A stretch of DNA of 64,000 nt. It comes from an uncultured Bacteroidota bacterium. Its GTDB lineage: Bacteria; Bacteroidota; Bacteroidia; Bacteroidales; SZUA-534. Location: the NCBI GenBank assembly GCA_946414435.1, contig CAMKOM010000003.1:68086-132085 (forward strand). Reading direction: 5' to 3'. The position numbers and the translations under genes are program-made. The notes below the pieces were generated by a model. It had not been told where the DNA came from, made no database searches, and worked only from the letters and a program-made list of their open reading frames with translations. Numbering within the stretch: position 1 is the stretch's first letter; each line of letters opens with the position of its first letter. Below are positions 251-34,908 of this stretch, one piece after another.

Positions 251-3200
251 TCAAAGTGTCAGTTTCACCCCCGCAATCACGCTTCGCGAAGCAGGATAAA
301 CGCCTGAATCAGTGCCACTTGCCACTTCGGGGTCGTAGCCCTTGTAGCGTGTGGCGGTGAACAGGTTGCTGCCCGTGGCAAACACCCGCAACTGCGCGTT
401 GTATTCCTTTGGAAGCGGCACGTTGTAACCGATGGTCAGTTCGCGAAGTTTCAGATAACCAGCATTTTGCACATATCGGCTGTCGATGTGGGCGAACGGC
501 CGCGGACGGCTTGCCAGCGGCAGCGTGTTGCCGCCGTTTTCGGGTGTCCACGAGTCCTTGACGGTTGCCAGAACATTGTACGAATCGCCCGTCAGTTCGA
601 GCCTGCGGCCCAGCGCGTTATACACCTTGTTGCCCACGCTGAACCCGAACGATGCCGAAAAATCGATGCCTTTCCAGTTCACTTGCGTCGAGAACCCGCC
701 AGTCAGTTTCGGTTGGATGCTGCCCAGAATCACGCGGTCGTTGCCGTCGATGCGGCCGTTGCCGTCGATGTCTTCAAACTTCAGGTCGCCAGGCTGCGGC
801 GTCTGACCGTTGATGGTTGGCAATTTGGTCACGTCCTCGCCGCTCTGCACAATGCCGCCGAACTTCAGCCCGTAGAATGCGCCCAGCGGCTCGCCCTTGC
901 GCAGAATCTGCTGATTGTCAGAACCTTGAATCACATTATTGGTCGTTCCCATATCGGTGATTCGGTTTTGGTTCAATGCGGCGTTCGCCGATGCCGTCCA
1001 CGACAGCCGTTTGCGCTCAACCAGCGTTGTGTTCACGGCCAGTTCTACGCCTTTATTCACCACATTTCCAACATTTTGCAACTGTGTTGTCACACCCGTC
1101 GAGAAGCCCACAGGCACGTCGAGCAGCAGGTCGCTCGTTTTCTTGTAATAGATGTCGAAAACAAAGTCTAACTTATTGTTATACAGTCCCAAATCGAAAC
1201 CAGCATTGTAACTTGCCGTTGTTTCCCACTTCAAGTTGTCGTTGGCCGTGTTCTTCTTTGCGTAACTGCTCGAACCGCCGTAAGAGCCTGTGGCATACGA
1301 AGTTGTGAAAGCGTAATCGCTGATTTCCTGATTGCCCACAACGCCGCCCGTCAAGCGGATTTTCAGGTAGGTCACCTTGCTGAAAGTGCTCATAAACGCT
1401 TCTTTATCAACGTTCCACGACAGTCCGAGCGATGGGAAATAGCCCCAGCGGTGGCTGTGCGCAAAGCGGCTCGAATTGTCGGCGCGGAAAGTGGCCGTCA
1501 GGTTGTATCTGTCACTCAATGTGTAGTTTACGCGAGCGATGAGCGAATTCAGTTTCGCCTCGCTGATGCCCGTTTGCGGCGTGTAGATGCCCGAGCCGTC
1601 GCCCAAATTGTACTGTTTCAGCACCTCGTTTGTGAAGTGATTGGTGCGCACAACGCTGTTGGTCGATGTTGATGTCTGACGTGTGAAACCTGCCAGAAAA
1701 TCAATCGATTGGCTGCCGCCCAAATCCTTCTGATAGGTGGCTGTGTATTCCTGCTGCCAAACGTCGGTCTGACGGTTGCCCGTGCCGCCCACGCCTTCAG
1801 TGGCAAGGCCCAGCGACGTGTACGCACCCGAAAAAGTGTTCTGCGTCAAGTGCTCGCTGTTCAGCCCGACCGACGCTTTAAGTGTCAGATTGCCAACCGT
1901 ATAACTACTCCAAACATTCGAGAGCAGATAGTTGTTCAGGTTTTCGGCCACGCTTTCGCGAAGGTCGTAAACAGGGTTGGCCGCGTGGTCGCCGATGGCG
2001 AAATAGGCGTACTCGTATGGGTTGCTGAAATTGTAGTCGCCGTTGGCGTTATAAACCTCAACCACAGGCGGCATAAGCAGCGCATAGACGAAACTGTTGG
2101 TGATTCCTGCCGAGAATGGCGACGAGTTGAAAACCTGCTTTTCGGTGGTCGTCAGGCCGCGCTGACGGATGCGTCCGTAAGTTGTGTTCACGCCGAAGCG
2201 CACCTGCTTGCGCGGTTCCCATTCCACGTTGGTGTGGAAGTTATATCGTTGAAAACCAGAGTTCAAAACAATGCCGTCTTGGTCGGTGTAGTTGGCCGAG
2301 AAGGTGTAGCGGCTCTTGTCGCCCGCACCCTTCACGCTCAAGTCGTGCACCTGCTGAACGGCTGTCCGCAGAACGGCGTCCTGCCAGTCGGTGCCGTTGC
2401 CCAGAGCCGCAATCTGCTCGTCGGTGTAACCGCCCTTGTTGCTGAAATATTTCTTCTGAAAATCAGCCCATTCACGCGCGTTTAAAAGGTCGAGTTTGTG
2501 GCTCACGCGGCTCAAGCCGATGCTGTAGCCATAGACAATGCCGCCGAATTTCTCGCCCGCCTTGCCCTTTTTGGTCGTTATCAGAATCACGCCGTTCGCA
2601 CCGCGCGACCCGTAAATGGCTGTCGCAGAGACGTCTTTCAGCACCTCAACCGACTCAATGTCGTCGGGGTTCACCGTCGAGAGCGGATTCAGGCTGCCCT
2701 CAATCGAGCCCAGACCCGTGCCCGTGTTGGCCGCGTCCTTGAAATAGATGAAACCGTCAATCACGTAGAGCGGCTCGTTGCTCGCATTCACCGAGTTGCC
2801 GCCGCGGATGCGGATGTGGCTGTCGGCGCCAGGCTGTCCGCTGCTTGCCGTAACGGCCAGTCCCGCAACCTTTCCGCTCAACGCCTTGTCAACCGATGGC
2901 GCCGCCGTGCGGCTGATGGCTTCGGCCTTGACCGTGGCCACACTGCCCGTCAGTTGCGTGCGTTTCTGCGTGCCGTAGCCCACAACAACCACCTCGCTCA
3001 ACTTGTTCAGGTTCTCTGTCAGTTGAACCTCAATAGGTTCCGATGCCTCGTACACGTCGATTTCCTGCGAGCGGTAGCCCACAAACTGAATCAGCAGCGT
3101 GAGCGGAAGTTTCACTTTTGTTTTGAGCGTGAAGTTGCCGTCAAGGTCGGCCACCGTGCCCAATTCGTTGCCCGTTGTCGGCACAATGGTTGACCCGATG

Positions 3201-3313
3201 AGCGGGTCGCCCGTCCGAGCGTCGGTCACGCGGCCAGTTATGGTGGTGGTCTGCGCCGACGCCGAACTTGCTGACACAAAAGCAATTATAATTATGAGTA
3301 ATATCTTTTTCAT
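251..3313 (-). CDS. SusC/RagA-family TonB-linked outer membrane receptor
   Basis: Long ORF. I place the start at the ATG at 3311-3313, giving the signal peptide MKKILLIIIIAFVSASSASAQ. It has an N-terminal carboxypeptidase-D-like regulatory domain (TITGRVTDARTGDPLIGSTIV) and a plug motif (IESVEVLKDVSATAIYGSRGANGVILITTKKGK). The C-terminus is beta-barrel-like. Confidence 0.9.
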   Translation of the reverse strand: MKKILLIIIIAFVSASSASAQTTTITGRVTDARTGDPLIGSTIVPTTGNELGTVADLDGNFTLKTKVKLPLTLLIQFVGYRSQEIDVYEASEPIEVQLTENLNKLSEVVVVGYGTQKRTQLTGSVATVKAEAISRTAAPSVDKALSGKVAGLAVTASSGQPGADSHIRIRGGNSVNASNEPLYVIDGFIYFKDAANTGTGLGSIEGSLNPLSTVNPDDIESVEVLKDVSATAIYGSRGANGVILITTKKGKAGEKFGGIVYGYSIGLSRVSHKLDLLNAREWADFQKKYFSNKGGYTDEQIAALGNGTDWQDAVLRTAVQQVHDLSVKGAGDKSRYTFSANYTDQDGIVLNSGFQRYNFHTNVEWEPRKQVRFGVNTTYGRIRQRGLTTTEKQVFNSSPFSAGITNSFVYALLMPPVVEVYNANGDYNFSNPYEYAYFAIGDHAANPVYDLRESVAENLNNYLLSNVWSSYTVGNLTLKASVGLNSEHLTQNTFSGAYTSLGLATEGVGGTGNRQTDVWQQEYTATYQKDLGGSQSIDFLAGFTRQTSTSTNSVVRTNHFTNEVLKQYNLGDGSGIYTPQTGISEAKLNSLIARVNYTLSDRYNLTATFRADNSSRFAHSHRWGYFPSLGLSWNVDKEAFMSTFSKVTYLKIRLTGGVVGNQEISDYAFTTSYATGSYGGSSSYAKKNTANDNLKWETTASYNAGFDLGLYNNKLDFVFDIYYKKTSDLLLDVPVGFSTGVTTQLQNVGNVVNKGVELAVNTTLVERKRLSWTASANAALNQNRITDMGTTNNVIQGSDNQQILRKGEPLGAFYGLKFGGIVQSGEDVTKLPTINGQTPQPGDLKFEDIDGNGRIDGNDRVILGSIQPKLTGGFSTQVNWKGIDFSASFGFSVGNKVYNALGRRLELTGDSYNVLATVKDSWTPENGGNTLPLASRPRPFAHIDSRYVQNAGYLKLRELTIGYNVPLPKEYNAQLRVFATGSNLFTATRYKGYDPEVASGTDSGVYPASRSVIAGVKLTL

Positions 3314-3332
3314 AGATAAAATCCGAGTGAAA

Positions 3333-3358
3333 GGGTTGCGGACCGAGCGGCCCGCCCC
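3333..3358 (-). promoter_or_regulatory. Intercistronic GC-rich hairpin between the binding-protein gene and the SusC-like gene
   Basis: On the minus strand, GCGGGCCGCUCGGUCCGC (3355-3338) folds into a 7-bp stem (one G-U pair) with a 4-nt loop. It is flanked by GGG/CCC and has no U-tract. Confidence 0.45.
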
Positions 3359-3393
3359 TGTATTCAAAAACTTTTATGATGTTGGTAATCAGA

Positions 3394-4239
3394 CTATTCC
3401 TGTGCCAGGTCTTTCGATGGTAGTTTCAGCAGGCCGTATTGGTGCAGATACTGCGCGCCGTTGGTCAGGGTCCACTGCACAAAATTGTTGAGCAGCGCGT
3501 TCGAGTGGTCGTAGGCGAAAGCCGCATTGCCCACAGGAATCTCGCTGTAGCGTGCGTGCTCGAGCAGAGTCAGAATCTCGTCGAGTTGGCCGTCGGCCAG
3601 CACCTGCTCACCCTGTTTGTCAAGGTCGAGCGGCAGCAGAGCGATGTCTTTCTTCAGTTGGCGGCTCTCAAGGTCGAAAATATTTGACAATGTGCTGATT
3701 GTGACGCCCCACGGGTCGCGGCTCACGGCCACAGTCAGGTAAGAGTCGTCGCCCGAAATCTTCTTTCCGCGATAGTCGGCAGCCGCCTCGTCGAAATGCT
3801 CGGCATAGAACCGCGACACCGACTGTTGGCCAGTTGCGGTGTAGATGTGGATTTTCTGCTCGGTGGCTGTCGGCTCGTCGTCCTCAAACAGGTCCTCAAC
3901 AAAGAAGAGCGCCTTAATCCGTTTTGCGTTCAGGCGGCGACCAATCAGCCCCGCCGCTTCCGACTCTTTGGCCGAAACGGGCAACACCGCGTAGCGCGCA
4001 AAGTTCACACCGTCGGCGCTGTTGCTCACAACCGAAAGGCTGTTCTTCTCGCCAGCCTGCGCCTTGCCAGCCTTAAACACAAACTCAACGCCCGTGTTGG
4101 TTTTGCTGTATTCGTCGGCCCACTTCTCAACAAGCGGTTTGACCGAATTTGGCACGTGCACCGTAACTTGTTGGCTTTGAGCCAAAACCGATGCCTGAAA
4201 TCCTAAAACTATTGCTACTGTATATATTATCTTTTTCAT
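3394..4239 (-). CDS. Secreted periplasmic-binding-protein-fold protein (PstS / PBP type 2-like); ligand unknown
   Basis: ATG at 4237-4239 and signal peptide MKKIIYTVAIVLGFQASVLAQ. The N-terminus (VTVHVPNSVKPLVEKWADEYSKTNTGVEFVF) and C-terminus (FVQWTLTNGAQYLHQYGLLKLP) resemble PstS-type binding proteins from memory. It is the first gene of an operon with the SusC-like gene. Confidence 0.55.
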   Translation of the reverse strand: MKKIIYTVAIVLGFQASVLAQSQQVTVHVPNSVKPLVEKWADEYSKTNTGVEFVFKAGKAQAGEKNSLSVVSNSADGVNFARYAVLPVSAKESEAAGLIGRRLNAKRIKALFFVEDLFEDDEPTATEQKIHIYTATGQQSVSRFYAEHFDEAAADYRGKKISGDDSYLTVAVSRDPWGVTISTLSNIFDLESRQLKKDIALLPLDLDKQGEQVLADGQLDEILTLLEHARYSEIPVGNAAFAYDHSNALLNNFVQWTLTNGAQYLHQYGLLKLPSKDLAQE

Positions 4240-4332
4240 TGTATTTTCGTTTTTAAAGTATTGATATTGTATTTATTAAAGATTGTTGTGGCCTTCGTTT
4301 CTACAGCGGCGCCACGGTCCGCACTTCCAATC

Positions 4333-4407
4333 TCACTCGTTGCAACAGCAACACATTCGCATTCGTTTTGTCATTTCCATTGTTTTAATCCGTTTCATTT
4401 CTCTCAT
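4333..4407 (-). CDS. Candidate regulatory leader peptide MREMKRIKTMEMTKRMRMCCCCNE
   Basis: A 24-codon ORF begins about 10-20 nt after the predicted -7 box and ends 93 nt before the binding-protein ATG. It has four consecutive Cys codons (TGT TGC TGT TGC, 4353-4342) and six ATG codons. Coding status is unproven. Confidence 0.45.
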   Translation of the reverse strand: MREMKRIKTMEMTKRMRMCCCCNE

Positions 4408-4423
4408 CACATTTTTGACGATG

Positions 4424-4557
4424 CAAAAGTGCAATGTTTGGAAATATCCACCAAATAGTTTAATTATAACGGAAAATATAACTACAAAATCCACTTTCAT
4501 AGAATCTAATTCTTTGCACCCCCTCAAATAAGGCGGGTGCGTAGAATAATATTCTAC
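4424..4557 (-). promoter_or_regulatory. Promoter plus upstream operator module of the binding-protein/SusC operon
   Basis: On the minus strand there is a -7-like box TGCACTTTTG (4433-4424) and a 15-nt block GAAATATCCACCAAA (4441-4455) identical to 13745-13759. Two 13-bp palindromes are present: AGAATCTAATTCT (4501-4513) and AGAATAATATTCT (4543-4555, inside the 17-bp perfect palindrome 4541-4557). Their centres are 42 bp apart. Confidence 0.6.
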
Positions 4558-4660
4558 CAACACGGTAGATTGGTAGGTTGATAGAACGTTTTTTGTGGTG
4601 TTTTTATTGGGATTTTGTAGGGTTGCACAGCGCGGTTTGTAGGACTGACGCACAAATTAT

Positions 4661-4778
4661 GTAGGGCTGTCACACCGTGGCAGCCGCAAATTGCAAATGC
4701 AAACCGCAATTTATCGCAATCAACCATTCATTACGCGGCTGCCGTAATACGACAGCCCTATAGCCCGGATGATAATCA
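4661..4778. repeat. Composite repeat: arm A (GTAGGGCTGTCACACCGTGGCAGCCGC, 4661-4687) plus 77-nt arm B (4702-4778)
   Basis: Arm B is repeated directly at 6108-6184 with a few mismatches, and arm A at 6196-6221. Parts of A and B are mutually complementary (TAGGGCTGTC/GACAGCCCTA and GCAGCCGC/GCGGCTGC). Arm B overlaps the stop codon of the ATPase gene. Confidence 0.8.
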
Positions 4779-5948
4779 ATAGTTTAATCCAAAAGCCCAG
4801 AGCGGCACAACGTTGCCTGAACCATATTCAATGTCGTCTTTCACCACAAAACCATCGTTCACACTAGCAATCTGCCGCAGCCCCTTACTCTTGCCGCCGA
4901 CTTCGAATGTAATATTATCTATTTTGAAATCAGCAACTTCCGATGCTGTAACTTTATGATTGACTCTCATCTGATTAAAGAAAATCGTCTCTCGGACATT
5001 GCCGATGTATGTTGCATTGCCGCCCAAAACGTATGCTAAATTGGTGTTATCCAGATAAATTTTCTCAACCTTGCCCAACCCGATTATTCCGCCTGTCGCA
5101 TCGCGCAACTGACCAATCATTCCGGCGCGTTCCATATAGTAGAAATAGTTGCCAACGTCGTTACGGCTCACGTTTATCATTTTCGAAATCTTGTCCAAAA
5201 CCGGCTTGAACGGCGAGCTTTCGGCAACAATCGCAAGTAGTTTTTTCAGCTTCTGCCCTGTTGCAACGTTCATTTTGGCAAACTGCGGAATGTCCACTTC
5301 CATAGTAAAATTTATCACTTGATTCAGTTCAACATCGAACCGGCTGTCTGTGGCAAACGGATAGTAGCCGCGTTGCAGATAGTCGCGGAACAGTGGCAGC
5401 GGATGACGCTCGGCGGCTATCTCGGCGCGATTTGCAAGAATATCTTCCAACTCGTATTTCGGAACCGTAATCTTATGAAACATAGCAAGATACTCACGAA
5501 ACGACAGACCTTGCATATAATACATTGGCGCACGACGGCTTAAGTCGGCCTCACCTTTGTTGATGTCGAGTATCGACGAGCCTGTGAAAGCGATTTTCAA
5601 ATCGGGGTGAGTGTCGTAAATCTGCTTCAGTTCTCTCGACCAATTCGGATATTTATGTATCTCATCTATAAACAAATGCTGCCCGCCCTCGCGGCTGAAC
5701 TCATCGGCAGTATCGACTAACGAATGAGCGGCAAAATAGGTGTTGTCGGCCGAAATGTAGAGAATCCGCTCACGGTCGAAGTTTTGCTTGATATATTGCA
5801 GAAACAGAATTGTCTTGCCAACACCGCGCGGCCCAACCAAACCGAAAAGTCGGTCATTCCAATTGATTCGCTCGTACATATATCGCTGAAAATCAACAGG
5901 CACATTTGCCAACTGATTCCTCATATACGTGATTAGGTTCGTATCCAT
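4776..5948 (-). CDS. AAA+ ATPase with DUF4143-type C-terminal domain (COG1373-like)
   Basis: Start placed at the ATG at 5946-5948 (MDTNLITYMRNQL). Walker A is GPRGVGKT and Walker B-like is HLFIDEIH. The C-terminal region is typical of DUF4143 proteins, from memory. Confidence 0.8.
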   Translation of the reverse strand: MDTNLITYMRNQLANVPVDFQRYMYERINWNDRLFGLVGPRGVGKTILFLQYIKQNFDRERILYISADNTYFAAHSLVDTADEFSREGGQHLFIDEIHKYPNWSRELKQIYDTHPDLKIAFTGSSILDINKGEADLSRRAPMYYMQGLSFREYLAMFHKITVPKYELEDILANRAEIAAERHPLPLFRDYLQRGYYPFATDSRFDVELNQVINFTMEVDIPQFAKMNVATGQKLKKLLAIVAESSPFKPVLDKISKMINVSRNDVGNYFYYMERAGMIGQLRDATGGIIGLGKVEKIYLDNTNLAYVLGGNATYIGNVRETIFFNQMRVNHKVTASEVADFKIDNITFEVGGKSKGLRQIASVNDGFVVKDDIEYGSGNVVPLWAFGLNY

Positions 5949-5980
5949 AGCATTAGTTTTTTTGCAAATATAAGCGATAT

Positions 5981-6060
5981 TGCACTTCGTAGGTGCAGTT
6001 TTGTATAATAATTTGCACTTCGTGGGTGCAAATTTAAGAGAAGATTGCACCTTCCGGGTG
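5981..6060 (-). promoter_or_regulatory. Three phased hairpin or palindromic operator-like sites upstream of the ATPase gene
   Basis: The sites are TGCAC-TTCGTAG-GTGCA (5981-5997), TTTGCAC-TTCGTGG-GTGCAAA (6012-6033) and a degenerate CACC-TTCCG-GGTG (6048-6060). Their centres are about 32-33 bp apart. The first abuts the -7 box TATATTTG (minus strand, 5972-5965). Confidence 0.55.
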
Positions 6061-6107
6061 AAATTATTAGGTTTTACTTACGAGAACAACGCTTATTTTG
6101 GAACACC

Positions 6108-6221
6108 AACCGCAAATTAACGCAATCAACCATTCATTACGCGGCTGCCGTAATACGACAGCCCTACGGCCGCGAATGATAATTACAACCAATCCGTAGG
6201 GTGTCACACCGTGGCAGCCGC
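6108..6221. repeat. Second copy of repeat arm B (6108-6184) followed by arm A' (6196-6221)
   Basis: This is a direct repeat of 4702-4778 and 4661-4687, with the order of arms inverted relative to the left copy. Together the two copies bracket the ATPase gene. Confidence 0.8.
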
Positions 6222-6286
6222 ACACCGCCACAACGCGCCAAAATTGGGAACATTGCCATCAATTACCAACATTTCACACCGCCAAA

Positions 6287-6422
6287 CGCCGAAGGCGTGA
6301 CATACCACAGGCCGGGGTGTAAACCCCGGTTGGGCGCCAGCGCATAAAATGAACGCCGAAGGCGTGGCACGAAATCATCGGCGGCATTAAACACGTAGAG
6401 ACGCGATTAATCGCGTCTCTAC
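6287..6422. repeat. Cluster of small GC hairpins (REP/BIME-like)
   Basis: CGCCGAAGGCG occurs at 6287-6297 and 6354-6364. CCGGGGTGTAAACCCCGG is at 6312-6329. A perfect 28-nt palindrome, GTAGAGACGCGATTAATCGCGTCTCTAC, is at 6395-6422. Confidence 0.75.
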
Positions 6423-6482
6423 ACACATTATCAATATTTTGCCGCTTTATACAGATTCACAAACACCCAGAATAAGGCAATA

Positions 6483-7529
6483 TTATATCTCGTTCAATAT
6501 TATCTTAAGTTCCTGACTATTATTGTTTTCAATCAGTTGCTCTTTCCAAACTTCAATTTTATTATTTTGATTTACTGCGCAATTCCAACTTTCCGCAAGT
6601 TTGTCTGCATTAAACTGACATAGCATTTCTTTTATGTTGTTCAAGTTCATATACAATCGTAAAAATATTTGTGGAACGTTATATAGTCTTTGGTCATTGA
6701 TAATAATATCGGACTTACCACCTGCAGTGAATTGGTCTCGAACATTCGGACAAACCACACCTTTTTCCATTGCCAACCACATTGCTAAACGATTGAACTT
6801 GTCACCGTGATAACCAAACATTTCGGGGAACAAACAATATGCCTGTAATTTGAGATTTTCCTTTTCTTCTTCTTTTAGATAATTCCACAAACGTAGTATA
6901 ATGTTGCTTGCTTGTTTTTCTTGTTCATCATCATCATCCCCCATCCACCATAGGCGTTCCCCTTGTTGAAGTTGGCTTTTGTAAAACTTAACAACAGTTT
7001 TTATTGGGTTGTCTTGCTTCCTTAATTCATCGTACGGTACGTGTATTTTATCGAAGAACGTTTCACCTTGCCCAAGTTCCATATTTATCAAATACCGGGG
7101 TGAGTGGGTTACAACAACGTCAGACAAACATTCTTCATAAGGGCGACAACGGAATTGTATCGGGTCGCACATTTTACCGAACAACATATAAATTCGTTCT
7201 ACACTATCTACTCTTGTTCCCTCCGCCACGCTACTACCGGTGCTTCGCCAATGGTTTTCTTTTGTGGTCTTAACTTCTATTCCATAAAAATCGTTCGCAA
7301 CAATGTCAGGAAATCTTTGTCCGGAAATCAATTTAATTGAATTTTCAAACGGTGTGTGCAATGAGTTTTCTGTCAAAACATCCAAAACCTCATCCTCTAA
7401 TTTGTTTCCCAATAATTTGACATATTTTTCCGGTTTCTCTGTCGCCCGTCGGTGTAATGTCAACAGAGAATCGTTTAGCAAACTTTCAAAAGCTTGTTTT
7501 TGGGGTTCCGGATTAACTGAAACTATCAT
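6483..7529 (-). CDS. Putative Type II restriction endonuclease (PD-(D/E)XK)
   Basis: Its start overlaps the stop of the upstream C5-methyltransferase by 4 nt (ATGA at 7526-7529). The motif FPDIVANDFYGIEVKTTK fits PD...E-x-K. The gene is AT-rich relative to its neighbours by eye. Confidence 0.65.
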   Translation of the reverse strand: MIVSVNPEPQKQAFESLLNDSLLTLHRRATEKPEKYVKLLGNKLEDEVLDVLTENSLHTPFENSIKLISGQRFPDIVANDFYGIEVKTTKENHWRSTGSSVAEGTRVDSVERIYMLFGKMCDPIQFRCRPYEECLSDVVVTHSPRYLINMELGQGETFFDKIHVPYDELRKQDNPIKTVVKFYKSQLQQGERLWWMGDDDDEQEKQASNIILRLWNYLKEEEKENLKLQAYCLFPEMFGYHGDKFNRLAMWLAMEKGVVCPNVRDQFTAGGKSDIIINDQRLYNVPQIFLRLYMNLNNIKEMLCQFNADKLAESWNCAVNQNNKIEVWKEQLIENNNSQELKIILNEI

Positions 7530-8860
7530 TCTTCACCAAAATAAAGTGGCCAAACTTGTTGTAAGCGACGCGCTATGTTGTATGCCAAAACAGGCGGAAC
7601 GGCATTCCCAATAATTTTGTAGGCGCCAGAAGGGCTGACTGCGAATTTTTTCCCATTGTATGAATTAGAAAAGACGAAATCGTAATCGGGCGGAAATGTC
7701 TGTATCATAGCGCATTCGCGCGGTGTCAAACGGCGCTCTGATTTTCCTGCTTTCAATTCGTCGGTATATTTGCCTCCGTGTTCAGCGGATAATCTGCGGT
7801 ATTCAATGTTGCCGTGGTGTTCGGAACGAATTGTCGGACCAATGTCGTCAAGATTCACTTCATTTTGCCCTTGACAATGCGCCCCCATATACTTGGCTTG
7901 CGAATAGTATTTTTGAGAATCGTCATTTGAATCCGATGGCTCATCTAATGATTCAAAAACATTCCTAACAGTCTGAAATTGAGCCAAACGTTTGTCTTTT
8001 ATATGGTAGTTATGCGTTGGCTTTGGGTAAGGATTGTATTTTTCGGGTATACTTTCTTTTTCAAGATTTTTTAATGCAGTTGGGTTTAACAAATCCTTAC
8101 GGATTCCTATAAATATAACTCTCTCGCGAGACTGCGGCACACCATAATCGGCGGCGTGCAATACTTGTGGCGGCAAAACAATATAATCGTTCCCTGCTGC
8201 AGAAGAAAAATCCTTTTGTATAATATCTTTTACATTGCCTAAATTTGTAAGTCCTTTAACATTCTCTGCAACAAATATTTTCGGCCGAGTAATATCAATT
8301 ACTTCCTTCATCCAAAAATACAATTTGCCACGAGTCTCTTCTGTTGCAATCTCGCTAGTAATATAATTCCCGTTGTGGTCTTTGTGCGATTCAAAACCCC
8401 TTCTTTTGCCAGCCACACTAAAATCCTGACAAGGGAAACCGCCTGTTACCACATCAATGTTTTTAGGGAAAATATCATTGCAATCACGGTGCATTTTTAC
8501 CAAATCCACCACACTTTCTGTACGATATATACCGTCATCGTCATTTGATTTGGAAAAATAGTGTACCCAAGCAGCCCTTGCATCAGGCAGAATATCGTTT
8601 GCAAATACTGTTTGAAATATTGTAGGGGTCAGCCTTACAAAATCGTTGTCTAAATGTTCCGCAACAAAATCGGGACACATTTTTTCATTTACGCTGCCCT
8701 TATGAGTAATAAAGCCGCCTTCAAAGCCCAAATCCATTCCTCCGCATCCAGAGAAAAGGGATAATACTCGTAATTTTTTGCCTTCCCCTAGTTTAATATC
8801 CTTGCTGAAAGGATATGAAAATTGTGGCTCCTCAACATTGTTTTTTGATTCGTCTTCCAT
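7526..8860 (-). CDS. DNA (cytosine-5)-methyltransferase
   Basis: The canonical motifs are present: I LFSGCGGMDLGF, IV GGFPCQDFSVAGKR, VI ENVKGL, VIII QSRERVIFIG and X GNAVPP. Confidence 0.95.
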   Translation of the reverse strand: MEDESKNNVEEPQFSYPFSKDIKLGEGKKLRVLSLFSGCGGMDLGFEGGFITHKGSVNEKMCPDFVAEHLDNDFVRLTPTIFQTVFANDILPDARAAWVHYFSKSNDDDGIYRTESVVDLVKMHRDCNDIFPKNIDVVTGGFPCQDFSVAGKRRGFESHKDHNGNYITSEIATEETRGKLYFWMKEVIDITRPKIFVAENVKGLTNLGNVKDIIQKDFSSAAGNDYIVLPPQVLHAADYGVPQSRERVIFIGIRKDLLNPTALKNLEKESIPEKYNPYPKPTHNYHIKDKRLAQFQTVRNVFESLDEPSDSNDDSQKYYSQAKYMGAHCQGQNEVNLDDIGPTIRSEHHGNIEYRRLSAEHGGKYTDELKAGKSERRLTPRECAMIQTFPPDYDFVFSNSYNGKKFAVSPSGAYKIIGNAVPPVLAYNIARRLQQVWPLYFGEE

Positions 8861-8923
8861 TTTTGCGCTAATGCTTTTTGCGCTTGCTTATCTGTATTCA
8901 GGTACAAACGGACAATCCAAAAC

Positions 8924-8957
8924 GGCAAAAAAATGTGGACTTGAACTTTATCCACAT
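8924..8957 (-). terminator. Rho-independent-type terminator
   Basis: Minus strand has the stem ATGTGGA/TCCACAT (8957-8951 / 8939-8933) followed by a T7 run. Confidence 0.6.
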
Positions 8958-9122
8958 CCTAGGCCGTCAGAATTGCCCGTTATCACAGATAAGTCAAGCC
9001 CACGCAATAGCGCAGGCATCTTTTTTGACTTATTCGTGTGATAACATTTCTAAAATTTCTGACGTTTTAGGATATGCCGAATTATCAAAGCAAACGCTTG
9101 ATTAATAATATGTTATTTAAAA

Positions 9123-9160
9123 ATTACTTTCTGTTTCTTACAGTTCGTTTAATGTTTTAT
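9123..9160. repeat. About 40-nt direct repeat, copy 1 (ATTACTTTCTGTTTCTTACAGTTCGTTTAATGTTTTAT)
   Basis: It matches 10193-10233 (ATTTACTTTCTGTTTCTTATACTATTCGTTTAATTATTTAT) with a few mismatches and indels. The two copies bracket the DUF1016 gene. Confidence 0.75.
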
Positions 9161-10137
9161 ATCTCTTTTAATTTGTTTTCAAATAGTTTTTTATCAGGCA
9201 GTTGCAATTGATATTGCGCCACCAGTGTTGGCGACAGGCTTCGTGATAAAGCGTACTCCACAACTTCGTCGTCTTTGTCGTGGCACAAAAGTATGCCAAT
9301 ACTTGGATTCTCGTGCGGTTTCTTTACGTCGCGGTCCAATGCTTCAAGATAAAAATCCAATTGGCCAAGGTATTCAGGCTTGAATTTGCCAACTTTCAAT
9401 TCAAATGCCACCATTGCGCCAATGCCTCGGTGAAAGAACAGCAAATCGACGTAAAAATCCTGGCAGCCTACTTGCAACCGAAATTCTTCCGCCATAAATA
9501 TGAAATCGTTACCAAGTTCAAGTATGAACTGCTTCATATTCGCAACCAATGCTTTTTGCAATTCAGATTCGGAATGCGATTCGGGCAGCCCCAAAAACTC
9601 AAGCACGTATGTGTCTTTAATATCGGGCACGTTCATTTCTCTCACCGCTGGTGAGAGTTTTGCCGATGTCAGGCTTCTCTCATATTGAGCCGCATCAATC
9701 TGCCGTTCCAATTCTCTCTTTGTCAAATGATTACGACGGCACATATCAATGTAAAACAACCTTTCCTCGTCGGTTTTACATCTCGACATAATAGTGATAT
9801 TATGTGTCCACGACAATTCTCTCACCGCTGGTGAGAGTTTTTCGTCGGAACTATACAACTCATAGAATTGCTTCATACGCCAAAGGTTCTTGTCGCTAAA
9901 TCCTTTGGCATCAGTAATTTCAGTTGCAATGTATGCCGCCAATTGTGTTACAACTCCTTTTCCCCAACTGGCTTCTTTAACTTTTATGCTTATCACCTGC
10001 CCAATCTGCCAATATAAATCAACAAGCGTTCGATTGGCCACTTCAAATACCGTCTGCCGCGCGGCTCGAATTCGTTGCGCCAGAAATTCAAACACATCTT
10101 TTGTCGTTGCATCGATATTTGATATTTCAGTGTTCAT
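9157..10137 (-). CDS. PDDEXK nuclease, YhcG / DUF1016 family
   Basis: The N-terminal region (LVDLYWQIGQ...GKGVVTQLAAYI...FSDKNLWRMKQFYELY) and the C-terminal motifs (DLLFFHRGIGAMVAFELKVGKFKPEYLGQLDFYL) match this family from memory. Confidence 0.85.
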   Translation of the reverse strand: MNTEISNIDATTKDVFEFLAQRIRAARQTVFEVANRTLVDLYWQIGQVISIKVKEASWGKGVVTQLAAYIATEITDAKGFSDKNLWRMKQFYELYSSDEKLSPAVRELSWTHNITIMSRCKTDEERLFYIDMCRRNHLTKRELERQIDAAQYERSLTSAKLSPAVREMNVPDIKDTYVLEFLGLPESHSESELQKALVANMKQFILELGNDFIFMAEEFRLQVGCQDFYVDLLFFHRGIGAMVAFELKVGKFKPEYLGQLDFYLEALDRDVKKPHENPSIGILLCHDKDDEVVEYALSRSLSPTLVAQYQLQLPDKKLFENKLKEI

Positions 10138-10192
10138 AGTTGGACTTTTATTCCTGCAACTGCTCTAATTTCTTGAGTAGTTGATTATTAGG

Positions 10193-10233
10193 ATTTACTT
10201 TCTGTTTCTTATACTATTCGTTTAATTATTTAT
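10193..10233. repeat. About 40-nt direct repeat, copy 2
   Basis: See 9123-9160. The preceding 10183-10200 (GATTATTAGGATTTACTT) also resembles 6063-6079 (ATTATTAGGTTTTACTT) upstream of the ATPase gene. Confidence 0.7.
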
Positions 10234-10326
10234 GCTTCTTCAACTATTTATGCTAATTGCGAAACTGTCAGTTTCGTAATTGATTCCTAATTTTTCAATA
10301 TTTTACTAAAACCCTGCAAGTTATAT

Positions 10327-11175
10327 CTAAATCAATTTCGTTATCATTTCATCGGCTTGCAACTGCATCTTGCAGAAAGCAAACCATCGCTTTCCCAAAT
10401 CCTTGATTGAAGCGCCAATGTGGTACACATCGCTATCGATAATCAGGAACCTGTCGTGCGACTTGGTAAAGATACACAAATCTATTGGTTCGTACTGCTT
10501 ATTGTGCTGCGCCAGCGCCACATTTAATGACGGCGAAGTCTGTTGCGTGTAGATTTTGGCCGTTACATTTTTGGCGCGCTCGGCCAACCGCAGCAAGACT
10601 GTTTCATCAACATAGTTATCTATCAGCACAATACGTTTCCTTGCCGAGCGAATCAGATTGTTGACAAAAGCGAACGGCTCAAGCATCTGTCCATCGTAAA
10701 AAATTCCCTCGACAGGCGGCAGCGAAGTGCGCACAAAGAAGTCGATTTTGTTAGAATGCTCTTCAAGTATTTTTTGTTGTGTTTCAAGTTGGCCCTCAAT
10801 GTTGGCCAGTCGGTTGTTAAATGCGTATCCTCTTAAAAGATAATCTTTTAATATACCTGTTGCCCATATTCTAAATAGTGTGCCTCTCTGACTTTTAACA
10901 CGATAGCCAACGGAAATAATTACATCGAGATTGTAATATTGGGTTCGGTATTTTTTCCCGTCTGCGGCAGTTGTCAAGTAATCCTTGACAACTGAATTTT
11001 TATCTAACTCTTTCTCTCTGAATATGTTATTAATATGAAGGCTGATATTTTGTTTTGTGGTTTCAAAAAGCACAGTCATTTGTTGCTGTGTCAGCCACAC
11101 AGTTTCCTCACTCAACCGCACTTCAAGCTTTACGGCATCGTCGGGTTGGTATAATATGATTTCGTTCCCTGTCAT
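10327..11175 (-). CDS. RhuM-family protein with a conserved C-terminal module
   Basis: The N-terminus carries YNLDVIISVGYRVKSQRGTLFRIWATGILKDYL, typical of Virulence_RhuM. The C-terminus carries IVLIDNYVDETVL...HDRFLIIDSDVYHIGASIKDLGKRWFAF. Confidence 0.8.
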   Translation of the reverse strand: MTGNEIILYQPDDAVKLEVRLSEETVWLTQQQMTVLFETTKQNISLHINNIFREKELDKNSVVKDYLTTAADGKKYRTQYYNLDVIISVGYRVKSQRGTLFRIWATGILKDYLLRGYAFNNRLANIEGQLETQQKILEEHSNKIDFFVRTSLPPVEGIFYDGQMLEPFAFVNNLIRSARKRIVLIDNYVDETVLLRLAERAKNVTAKIYTQQTSPSLNVALAQHNKQYEPIDLCIFTKSHDRFLIIDSDVYHIGASIKDLGKRWFAFCKMQLQADEMITKLI

Positions 11176-11335
11176 AAAATGCTAAATCTTCGCCTTAACG
11201 CGAACTACCAAGTTTTTATCGGTAGTTGATATTTAGTTTCGCCCCACACAAAAGGCTACCAAATATAGAAACAAAATGAAAACAAAAAAGGCCCGCAACT
11301 TTCGCCACGAGCCCGTCAAAACACAGAAATTAACA

Positions 11336-34665: not shown

Positions 34666-34908
34666 ATGGAAACTAAAGACATAAAGGAAAAGGTTGAACA
34701 TTTGGAGCATCTGCTTTTCAGAGCCACACTTGAAGAATACCCGCAGCTGGCGCGCGAATACTCATACTGGGCCGAGAAACTGGCCGAACGCGAGAAAGTT
34801 TCAACAAAACGACGTCTTGACGATGATGATGACGAAGATGATGATGAAGAAAAGGATAACGATGAAGAAATAACCGACAGCGACGATGATGATGAAGACG
34901 GCGAATAA
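34666..34908 (+). CDS. Small, highly acidic hypothetical protein
   Basis: ATG at 34666 (METKDIKEKVEHLEHLL). The C-terminal Asp/Glu tract is DDDDDEDDDEEKDNDEEITDSDDDDEDGE, and a terminator follows. Confidence 0.45.
   Translation: METKDIKEKVEHLEHLLFRATLEEYPQLAREYSYWAEKLAEREKVSTKRRLDDDDDEDDDEEKDNDEEITDSDDDDEDGE

Follow-up and report, generated by a model that had tools for sequence, protein, structure and literature searches.

A 64,000-nucleotide (nt) stretch from an uncultured Bacteroidales bacterium (contig CAMKOM010000003.1, positions 68,086 to 132,085; the whole stretch is called the window here) carries a short open reading frame (ORF), rich in Met and Cys codons, between a predicted promoter and the genes of an uptake operon. 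Judging from proteins with 97 to 99% identity in metagenome-assembled genomes of that name, the bacterium is probably Salinivirgaceae-like and from the rumen. We consider it likely, judging from the sequence and its relatives, that this leader ORF is a cis-acting, ribosome-read sensor of sulfur amino acid supply for a putative sulfur acquisition operon (PstS-like binding protein, SusC, and SusD). The initial annotation of the window had proposed the core of this reading, namely, that the Cys run and the Met enrichment sense sulfur amino acids for the binding-protein/SusC operon. Support for it comes from the conservation of the ORF, from attenuators in distant relatives (type C, described below), from the scarcity of Met and Cys in the operon proteins, and from the gene neighborhood.

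A Met- and Cys-rich leader ORF ahead of a Met- and Cys-poor operon

The leader ORF encodes MREMKRIKTMEMTKRMRMCCCCNE on the minus strand (4407 to 4333; ATG at 4407 and TGA stop codon at 4335 to 4333). Six Met and four Cys residues make up 10 of its 24 residues (0.42), a fraction above the 99th percentile (0.287) of the 356 short ATG-initiated ORFs in the window. The four Cys codons, TGT TGC TGT TGC, occupy positions 4353 to 4342 (minus strand). The position of the ORF, its 10/24 Met/Cys content, and the four Cys codons all agree with the initial annotation. On both strands of the window (128 kb), in-frame runs of at least three Cys codons with an upstream ATG were found twice, the leader ORF included. 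The other Cys-run ORF (17319 to 17077) lies antisense to a 607-amino-acid ORF and was rejected, as was a Met-rich ORF at 34823 to 34873 that is an alternative frame of an acidic GAT-repeat tail. The leader ORF exceeds chance, above all through its conservation in related loci.

The conserved start codon is probably the ATG at 4395, which opens a conserved 21-codon core (4395 to 4333, minus strand), since the ATG at 4407 is missing from loci L002, L006, and L091. Within this core lies a putative stall stretch, CGA-AUG-CGA-AUG-UGU-UGC-UGU-UGC (R-M-R-M-C-C-C-C; 4342 to 4365, minus strand), which is unchanged in close orthologs. The pattern RMRMCC(C)(C) is seen again in distant loci, L009 among them.

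The family of the binding protein comprised 1,710 members at an E value of <=1e-5, and we collected 92 related loci from Bacteroidales. In 74 of the 92, a Met/Cys-rich short ORF with two to eight consecutive Cys codons lies between the promoter and the binding-protein gene, and it is still found at loci with a binding-protein identity as low as 33%. The block AAACGAATGCGAATGTGTTGCTGTTGCAAC is invariant in seven close orthologs (8/8 in the overall count), with divergence on both flanking sides; in close orthologs the last residue of the leader ORF varies (E, G, or K), and the start codon shifts (MRTIEKRMRMCCCCNG in L003). Among 58 distinct short ORFs, we counted 25 patterns of TGT and TGC, that is, synonymous variation of the Cys codons, and the composition around the Cys run was 25.7% Met and 23.1% Cys. 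The peptides are 13 to 70 amino acids long, and residues outside Cys and Met drift. The initial annotation had suggested a check on orthologous loci, and this check came out in its favor: the ORF and the Cys run are present in close and distant leaders, and drift is seen in peptide length, in Cys codon number, and in the remaining residues. These comparisons indicate that the leader ORF is conserved as a coding frame and that its conserved content is the Cys run together with the Met codons. The Arg codons just before the Cys runs are CGA in 64 of 71 cases, versus 41 of 570 (7%) in the downstream binding-protein genes; CGA could act here as a slow-decoding codon or as part of a nucleotide motif (CGAAUG).

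The stop codon of the short ORF takes one of two positions, two to four codons past the Cys run or exactly 50 nt into the first gene, and no intermediates occur. In type A, the type of the window, the stop codon lies two to four codons past the Cys run and 69 to 105 nt from the ATG of the first gene (84 to 105 nt except in L056). Type B leaders, which are Prevotella-like, have an ORF that continues without a stop across an AT-rich spacer and in every case terminates 50 nt into the first gene. In the 30 distinct leaders of this type, the distance from the Cys run to the ATG is 73 to 91 nt and always 1 mod 3, and the frame of the ORF is free of stops, whereas the other two frames contain stops in 29/30 and 30/30 leaders. 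Gene callers annotate the type B ORF as a 53-amino-acid gene. Type C is found in distant relatives (e.g., Proteiniphilum) and has peptides of the CCMTMCCCMAMAVQCRCHVSGKG kind, with a strong intrinsic terminator after each ORF. Locus L047 resembles L029 with the entire leader ORF excised between the direct repeats gatataaag/gatataag and with the promoter and start region intact; it would represent a naturally occurring allele that lacks the leader. Type B ORFs (L016-L078) keep a perfect Shine-Dalgarno-like AAGGAGG about 45 nt before the binding-protein ATG. In L056 and L059, AAGGAG(G) stands 7 to 9 nt upstream of the first-gene ATG, a normal Shine-Dalgarno distance and an unusual feature for Bacteroidota, which, to our knowledge, generally do without Shine-Dalgarno-led initiation.

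The first gene of the operon (3394 to 4239, minus strand) encodes a secreted PstS/ModA-like binding protein of 281 amino acids with a weak match to PBP_like_2. Its AlphaFold2 model (predicted local distance difference test score, 70.7) has its best PDB fold matches among phosphate-binding PstS and molybdate-binding ModA proteins. When the binding-protein family was searched by sequence against the PDB, no significant match was obtained, and the fold comparison alone was informative. The next gene (251 to 3367, minus strand) encodes a SusC/RagA-type TonB-dependent transporter with plug and barrel domains (TIGR04056; 813 bits). SusD follows SusC in orthologous loci, and in the window, the SusD partner lies past the window edge.

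The proteins of this operon contain almost no sulfur amino acids. The binding protein of the window has no internal Met and no Cys in its 281 amino acids, SusC has three or four Met and no Cys in about 1,020 to 1,038 amino acids, and the SusD protein of L007 has no internal Met and two Cys in 546 amino acids. Among 38 long ORFs of the window, the binding protein (0.00%) and SusC (0.29%) have the two lowest Met/Cys contents; the next lowest is 1.65%, and the median is 3.42%. About 52 members of the binding-protein family have 3 Cys in 14,451 codons, and their Met is essentially the initiator alone. Proteins made in response to sulfur starvation are, as a rule, low in sulfur amino acids (PMC2940859). 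That the regulated proteins nearly lack Met and Cys is consistent with expression in times of shortage. Downstream of SusD in L091, L096, and L103, we found a YtkA-domain protein, a protein of about 655 amino acids, a URO-D family protein, and an SDF-family transporter. The YtkA-domain, ~655-amino-acid, and SDF proteins of L091 and L096 have a normal Met/Cys content (2 to 4%), so the sulfur-sparing unit seems to end at SusD.

Upstream of the leader ORF, a predicted Bacteroidota-type -7 box, CACTTTTG within tgcacttttg, is located at 4433 to 4424 (minus strand), 185 nt from the ATG at 4239 of the 281-amino-acid gene; the initial annotation had described this box and a gap of about 185 nt, and both were found as described. 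The GCACTTTTGCATCGT of the box is kept in 8/8 close orthologs with divergent flanks, and the family consensus of the box is CGCCGTACCTTTGCA. The leader ORF begins 17 to 29 nt past the conserved box. From the promoter motif, the predicted 5' untranslated region is roughly 8 to 20 nt in the window and about 60 nt in Prevotella-like leaders. Farther upstream lies the palindrome TACCAATCTACCGTGTTGGTA (4555 to 4575), a candidate transcription factor operator, and a second palindrome, GTAGAATATTATTCTAC, with half-sites TATTCTAC (4541 to 4557). Most related loci, leader-less ones included, have palindromes of the form TACCA-N5-8-TGGTA / ATACC...GGTAT upstream of the -7 box, and leader-less relatives also carry the ATTCTAC motif in their promoter regions. 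The operator-like motifs recur at 63.3 to 63.4 kb, but these second copies were rejected as chance because they are located within a coding region.

Genes with a link to sulfur lie next to the operon in several relatives. In three lineages (L091, L103, and the sister genome L001), Cys_Met_Meta_PP and Aminotran_1_2 genes stand directly upstream with the same orientation, and TusA, DsrE, ThiS, ThiF, and JAB are encoded near the operon in L096. In L009 (Prolixibacteraceae), a leader ending in MCCCTPMRMRMCC and located after similar palindromes directly precedes a Cys_Met_Meta_PP gene (E = 1.5e-141), whose product has one internal Met and no Cys. This gene is followed by those for a response regulator and then for the binding protein, SusC, and SusD.

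Proposed mechanism and output structures

Under the sensor reading, ribosomes would traverse the 21 to 24 codons of the leader when charged tRNA-Cys and tRNA-Met are plentiful and would be released at the UGA (4335 to 4333), with the operon kept low. When charged tRNA-Cys and tRNA-Met are scarce, ribosomes would stall on R(CGA)-M-R(CGA)-M-C-C-C-C (4365 to 4342), and a stalled ribosome would raise the expression of the downstream genes. The downstream proteins could still be made in shortage because almost no Met or Cys is needed for them. We infer that the operon is on during shortage and that Met is sensed as well as Cys.

The full 1:2 / 2:3 / 3:4 logic of attenuation was found in the type C loci L008, L010, L076, L079, L082, L084, L088, and L090. 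Terminators of -14 to -23 kcal/mol follow each short ORF, and at some loci two units stand in tandem. When the transcript up to the terminator 3' arm is folded with the Cys run occupied by a ribosome, the final codons of the ORF (AUCAGG..GGGGU) are predicted to pair with 10 or 11 of the 13 nt of the terminator 5' arm. The stop codon comes directly after GGGG, and a ribosome located there is predicted to cover the antiterminator strand, leaving the terminator free to form. Across 11 aligned units, pairing of the terminator amounts to 95%, with five compensatory pairs. The antiterminator is 81% paired, compared to 36 to 52% for slid controls; 12 of 500 shuffles reach the observed value, and one pair covaries (G-C in five sequences and A-U in four). 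As modeled, the type C units are classical attenuators. The combination of a terminator and an antiterminator that overlaps the end of the ORF is present in these relatives and missing in the window leader.

In the window, the Cys codons themselves form a small hairpin, GUUGC-UGUU-GCAAC (4352 to 4339, minus strand). An equivalent 5-bp hairpin is the sole consensus pairing in Prevotella-like leaders, where it is weak and mostly invariant. Two GC-rich helices follow the ORF on the minus strand. Helix H2, GCGG/CCGC (4322 to 4319 with 4309 to 4306), begins 11 nt past the stop codon and is invariant in all 10 type A leaders; it therefore carries no covariation information. Helix H3, GUGGC/GCCAC (4315 to 4311 with 4292 to 4288), has its 5' arm within the H2 loop and becomes (U)AAUGGC/GCCAUU(A) in L001, L006, L091, and L101, which amounts to one compensatory change from G-C to A-U and an extension of the helix. 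The hairpin and both helices had been located correctly in the initial annotation, but its description of the helices as mutually exclusive did not hold: they share no bases, and no toggling between them is demonstrable. Since H2 and H3 have no nucleotides in common and each has one arm in the loop of the other, they fit an H-type pseudoknot. Pseudoknot-driven read-through of the stop codon was considered and rejected, as the frame is open for just 18 to 22 codons past the UGA, which is not significant.

The first gene has a conserved ATG and a conserved A-rich translation initiation region (AATACTTTAAAAACGAAA...ATG; 4237 to 4262, minus strand). A stalled ribosome that opens this start region, in the style of mycobacterial leaders (see below), was rejected as the output because the region is predicted to be open in all states. 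Pairing of the Cys codons (UGUUG) with the conserved CAACA(C)AU box or with other parts of the spacer was likewise rejected, being no better than in shuffled spacers. Searches against Rfam 15, with gathering as well as permissive thresholds, gave nothing but spurious subthreshold matches in the region 4150 to 4850 and none in the leaders of five related loci; the families covered include the Bacteroid-trp, Thr, His, Leu, and Trp leaders.

The output of the window variant may be premature (Rho-type) termination or an RNA fate involving H2/H3 just past the stop codon, but we hold this proposal to be doubtful. For type B leaders, it is plausible that ribosomes reading across the start of the first gene would occlude it and that stalling upstream would relieve the occlusion. 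The broader idea that these loci form a Bacteroidales "sulfur ribulon" is offered tentatively, as one that could well prove wrong. In such a ribulon, Cys/Met-codon leaders would switch on a nearly Met/Cys-free PstS-like/SusC/SusD importer of a sulfur compound, and the same sensor would have three outputs: a terminator, a terminator-less leader with a possible pseudoknot, and an ORF across the start of the first gene.

Counterevidence, alternative explanations, and known leaders

Several observations weigh against a ribosome-read sensor at this locus. The position of the transcription start site is inferred from the promoter motif. No U-tract terminator was found in the window leader, as the initial annotation had already reported, though canonical ones occur elsewhere in the window. 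The folding analysis that had been suggested for the leader went against the proposal: the single-sequence fold of 4230 to 4425 was no better than that of shuffled sequence (z = +1.1). RNAalifold recovered invariant pairs only from the ten type A leaders; from the Prevotella-like leaders, it recovered essentially no structure (-1.45 kcal/mol). A duplex between the Cys run and the spacer did not exceed chance (mean z of -0.3 to -0.5), and unpaired probabilities of 0.77 to 0.94 are predicted for the first gene's start region at every ribosome position. In 11 loci, there is no leader ORF, the promoter box lies 25 to 40 nt from the ATG, and the binding proteins have just as few sulfur amino acids. 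The existence of these leader-less homologous operons implies that the leader is dispensable and that another regulator must exist. The strong CGA bias and the 30-nt invariance point to some constraint at the nucleotide level outside the simple model, and neighbors with HMA and YtkA domains hint at metals.

The last of these points bears on the possibility that the product of the ORF is itself functional, a Met/Cys-rich micropeptide that serves as a binder of Cu(I) or other thiophilic metals, as a chaperone, or as a precursor from which a sulfur-rich metallophore is made, to be imported through the adjacent TonB-dependent system. MxM and poly-Cys are motifs typical of soft-metal ligands. An HMA-domain gene lies directly upstream in L096, the upstream genes of L075, L077, and L083 have HMA-like C termini, and a YtkA-domain gene follows SusD in L091 and L096. 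Moreover, the binding protein resembles ModA besides PstS, and the ThiS/ThiF/JAB trio, which is found in L096, can serve thio-metallophore synthesis too. However, the peptide varies between 13 and 70 amino acids with a Cys run of 2 to 8 and a drifting remainder, and no conserved maturation enzyme or exporter is adjacent, the conserved neighbors being the binding protein, SusC, and SusD only. The end of the type C ORF overlaps the antiterminator, each copy having its own terminator, and the downstream proteins avoid Met and Cys. In L047, the operon is intact though the ORF is cleanly removed relative to L029. On balance, we regard a micropeptide function as very improbable. There is even less reason to believe that the open frame is incidental to a noncoding signal, such as a UG-rich RNA motif bound by a protein or a small RNA, or a DNA site. 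A stretch of about 30 nt is the same in all eight close orthologs, with no synonymous change, and the repeated CGAAUG and the preference for CGA (64/71) suggest selection at the nucleotide level. But the wider family varies freely between TGT and TGC, with its 25 patterns, indels have lengths divisible by three, the frame remains free of stops across an AT-rich spacer that is full of them in other frames, the ATG start is always present, and no Rfam family matches. A signal of this kind is thus extremely unlikely.

The leader-less operons and the palindromes raise the question of whether a transcription factor, possibly the neighboring LuxR/GerE-type regulator, is in essential control, with the translated ORF merely tuning or buffering expression or with stalling lowering it via polarity. 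The ATACC...GGTAT palindromes are conserved even in relatives without the leader ORF, and no output structure was found in the window variant. GerE/LuxR-type regulators are indeed neighbors in some relatives, with a GerE-domain response regulator inside the L009 operon and a GerE protein after the operon in L094 and L095. On the other hand, the geometry of the type C terminator and antiterminator predicts read-through on stalling, regulated proteins that almost lack Met and Cys fit expression under shortage, and simple tuning leaves the conservation of the Cys run specifically unexplained. We find it unlikely that such a factor holds the essential control. Going by the conserved palindromes, a transcription factor probably adds a second control layer to the ribosome-read sensor.

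Among known leaders, the closest comparison is with the polycysteine leaderless short ORFs of mycobacteria (the "Cys ribulon" of Canestrari et al.), which relieve a duplex masking the next gene's ribosome-binding site (bioRxiv 10.1101/834739). Both systems have a short ORF with consecutive Cys codons at several loci, ahead of operons related to sulfur or cysteine (putatively so in the Bacteroidales). In the mycobacterial system, stalling in the Cys tract is the sensing event, and two or more Cys codons suffice; the window leader has four. In contrast to mycobacteria, the loci described here belong to an unrelated phylum and have no sequence homology to the mycobacterial ones, no leaderless mRNA is predicted, Met codons are enriched alongside Cys codons, and the target is an outer membrane SusC/SusD uptake operon. 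An output of the mycobacterial type is unsupported in the window because the start region is predicted to be open in all states and the duplex of Cys run and spacer is no better than shuffles. The initial annotation was aware of no Cys-codon leader described for a TonB-dependent operon. We found none for a TonB-dependent operon or for Bacteroidota, whereas Cys-codon leaders as such have been described in mycobacteria (bioRxiv 10.1101/834739). The searchable literature likewise yielded no description of a Bacteroidota Cys/Met leader or of a sulfur-regulated SusCD system.

The enterobacterial trp, his, leu, thr, pheA, and ilv leaders also encode a leader peptide rich in codons of the regulatory amino acid, and type C relatives resemble them in having an intrinsic terminator as well as a stop codon adjacent to the antiterminator strand. 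The window variant differs in having no intrinsic terminator; furthermore, the regulated genes serve uptake and not biosynthesis, and two amino acids that share sulfur are combined rather than those of a pathway branch. The window element would work like the mycobacterial and trp/his leader classes but is not homologous to them. Rho-acting leaders of the tnaC/mgtL type combine a short ORF with the lack of an intrinsic terminator, and transcription read-through may be decided by a ribosome that stalls close to the stop codon; they are a candidate analogy for the window variant. The tnaC leader senses a nascent peptide and free tryptophan, not tRNA charging. Unlike precursors of ribosomally synthesized and posttranslationally modified peptides or of metallophores (e.g., the methanobactin MbnA type), the leader peptide has a core that varies in length and Cys number and lacks conserved maturation enzymes and an exporter. 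In Bacteroidota, the Bacteroid-trp leader is regarded as a probable Trp-codon peptide leader. It differs from the window leader in sequence, amino acid, and genes, and cmscan of the window and related loci gave no match to it or to another Rfam family in the leader. It was reported as a cis-regulatory leader candidate in Bacteroidetes (RF01692; Weinberg et al. 2010; PMC2864571).

Genomic surroundings and implications

The window has its own Cys_Met_Meta_PP gene (13770 to 12517) and Aminotran_1_2 gene (12520 to 11336), the latter with a terminator at 11314 to 11289. A segment of ~6.7 kb (about 4600 to 11285) appears to be inserted between this terminator and the leader's operator/promoter. The Aminotran_1_2 terminator of the sister genome L001 directly abuts CAACCTACCAA. 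The segment contains a 282-amino-acid ORF, a 326-amino-acid ORF (10137 to 9157), a C5 DNA methylase, a 348-amino-acid ORF, and an AAA_14 ATPase; the L007 counterpart of the 326-amino-acid ORF matches YhcG/DUF1016 nuclease domains. At 6285 to 6330 (minus strand), between the 348-amino-acid ORF and the AAA_14 ATPase gene and adjoining the C5 DNA methylase, we found a match to Acido-Lenti-1 RNA (RF01687; 40.9 bits versus a gathering score of 37). This family has been described from Acidobacteria and Lentisphaerae (PMC2864571), and the match sits in a Bacteroidales genome. A long imperfect hairpin, GGCTGTCGTATTACGGCAGCCGC...GCGGCTGCCACGGTGTGACAGCC, lies just past the AAA_14 gene (4664 to 4758, minus strand) and is common to the window and L007 only among the close orthologs compared; its match to mir-449 (E = 1.6e-4) was rejected as spurious. 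Three CCTACA-containing repeats (two CCCTACA and one TCCTACA) come next, at about 4600 to 4670.

Peptide-leader attenuation is a textbook mechanism that is hardly documented in Bacteroidota, and for cysteine it has been shown only in mycobacteria. The locus described here points to a conserved ribosome-based sulfur sensor in abundant rumen and gut Bacteroidales. The TonB-dependent uptake system behind it is built almost without sulfur amino acids and is probably a sulfur-scavenging route in sulfide-rich anaerobic habitats. For genome annotation, the signature to look for is a short ORF rich in Met and Cys codons ahead of genes whose products have few sulfur amino acids. If the sulfur ribulon exists, a sulfur compound would be a nutrient class not known for SusCD systems, and the ORF across the start of the first gene would imply that translational occlusion is used for regulation in a phylum whose initiation does not rely on Shine-Dalgarno pairing. 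Natural variants of one sensor with different outputs could show how attenuation works without Shine-Dalgarno-led initiation.

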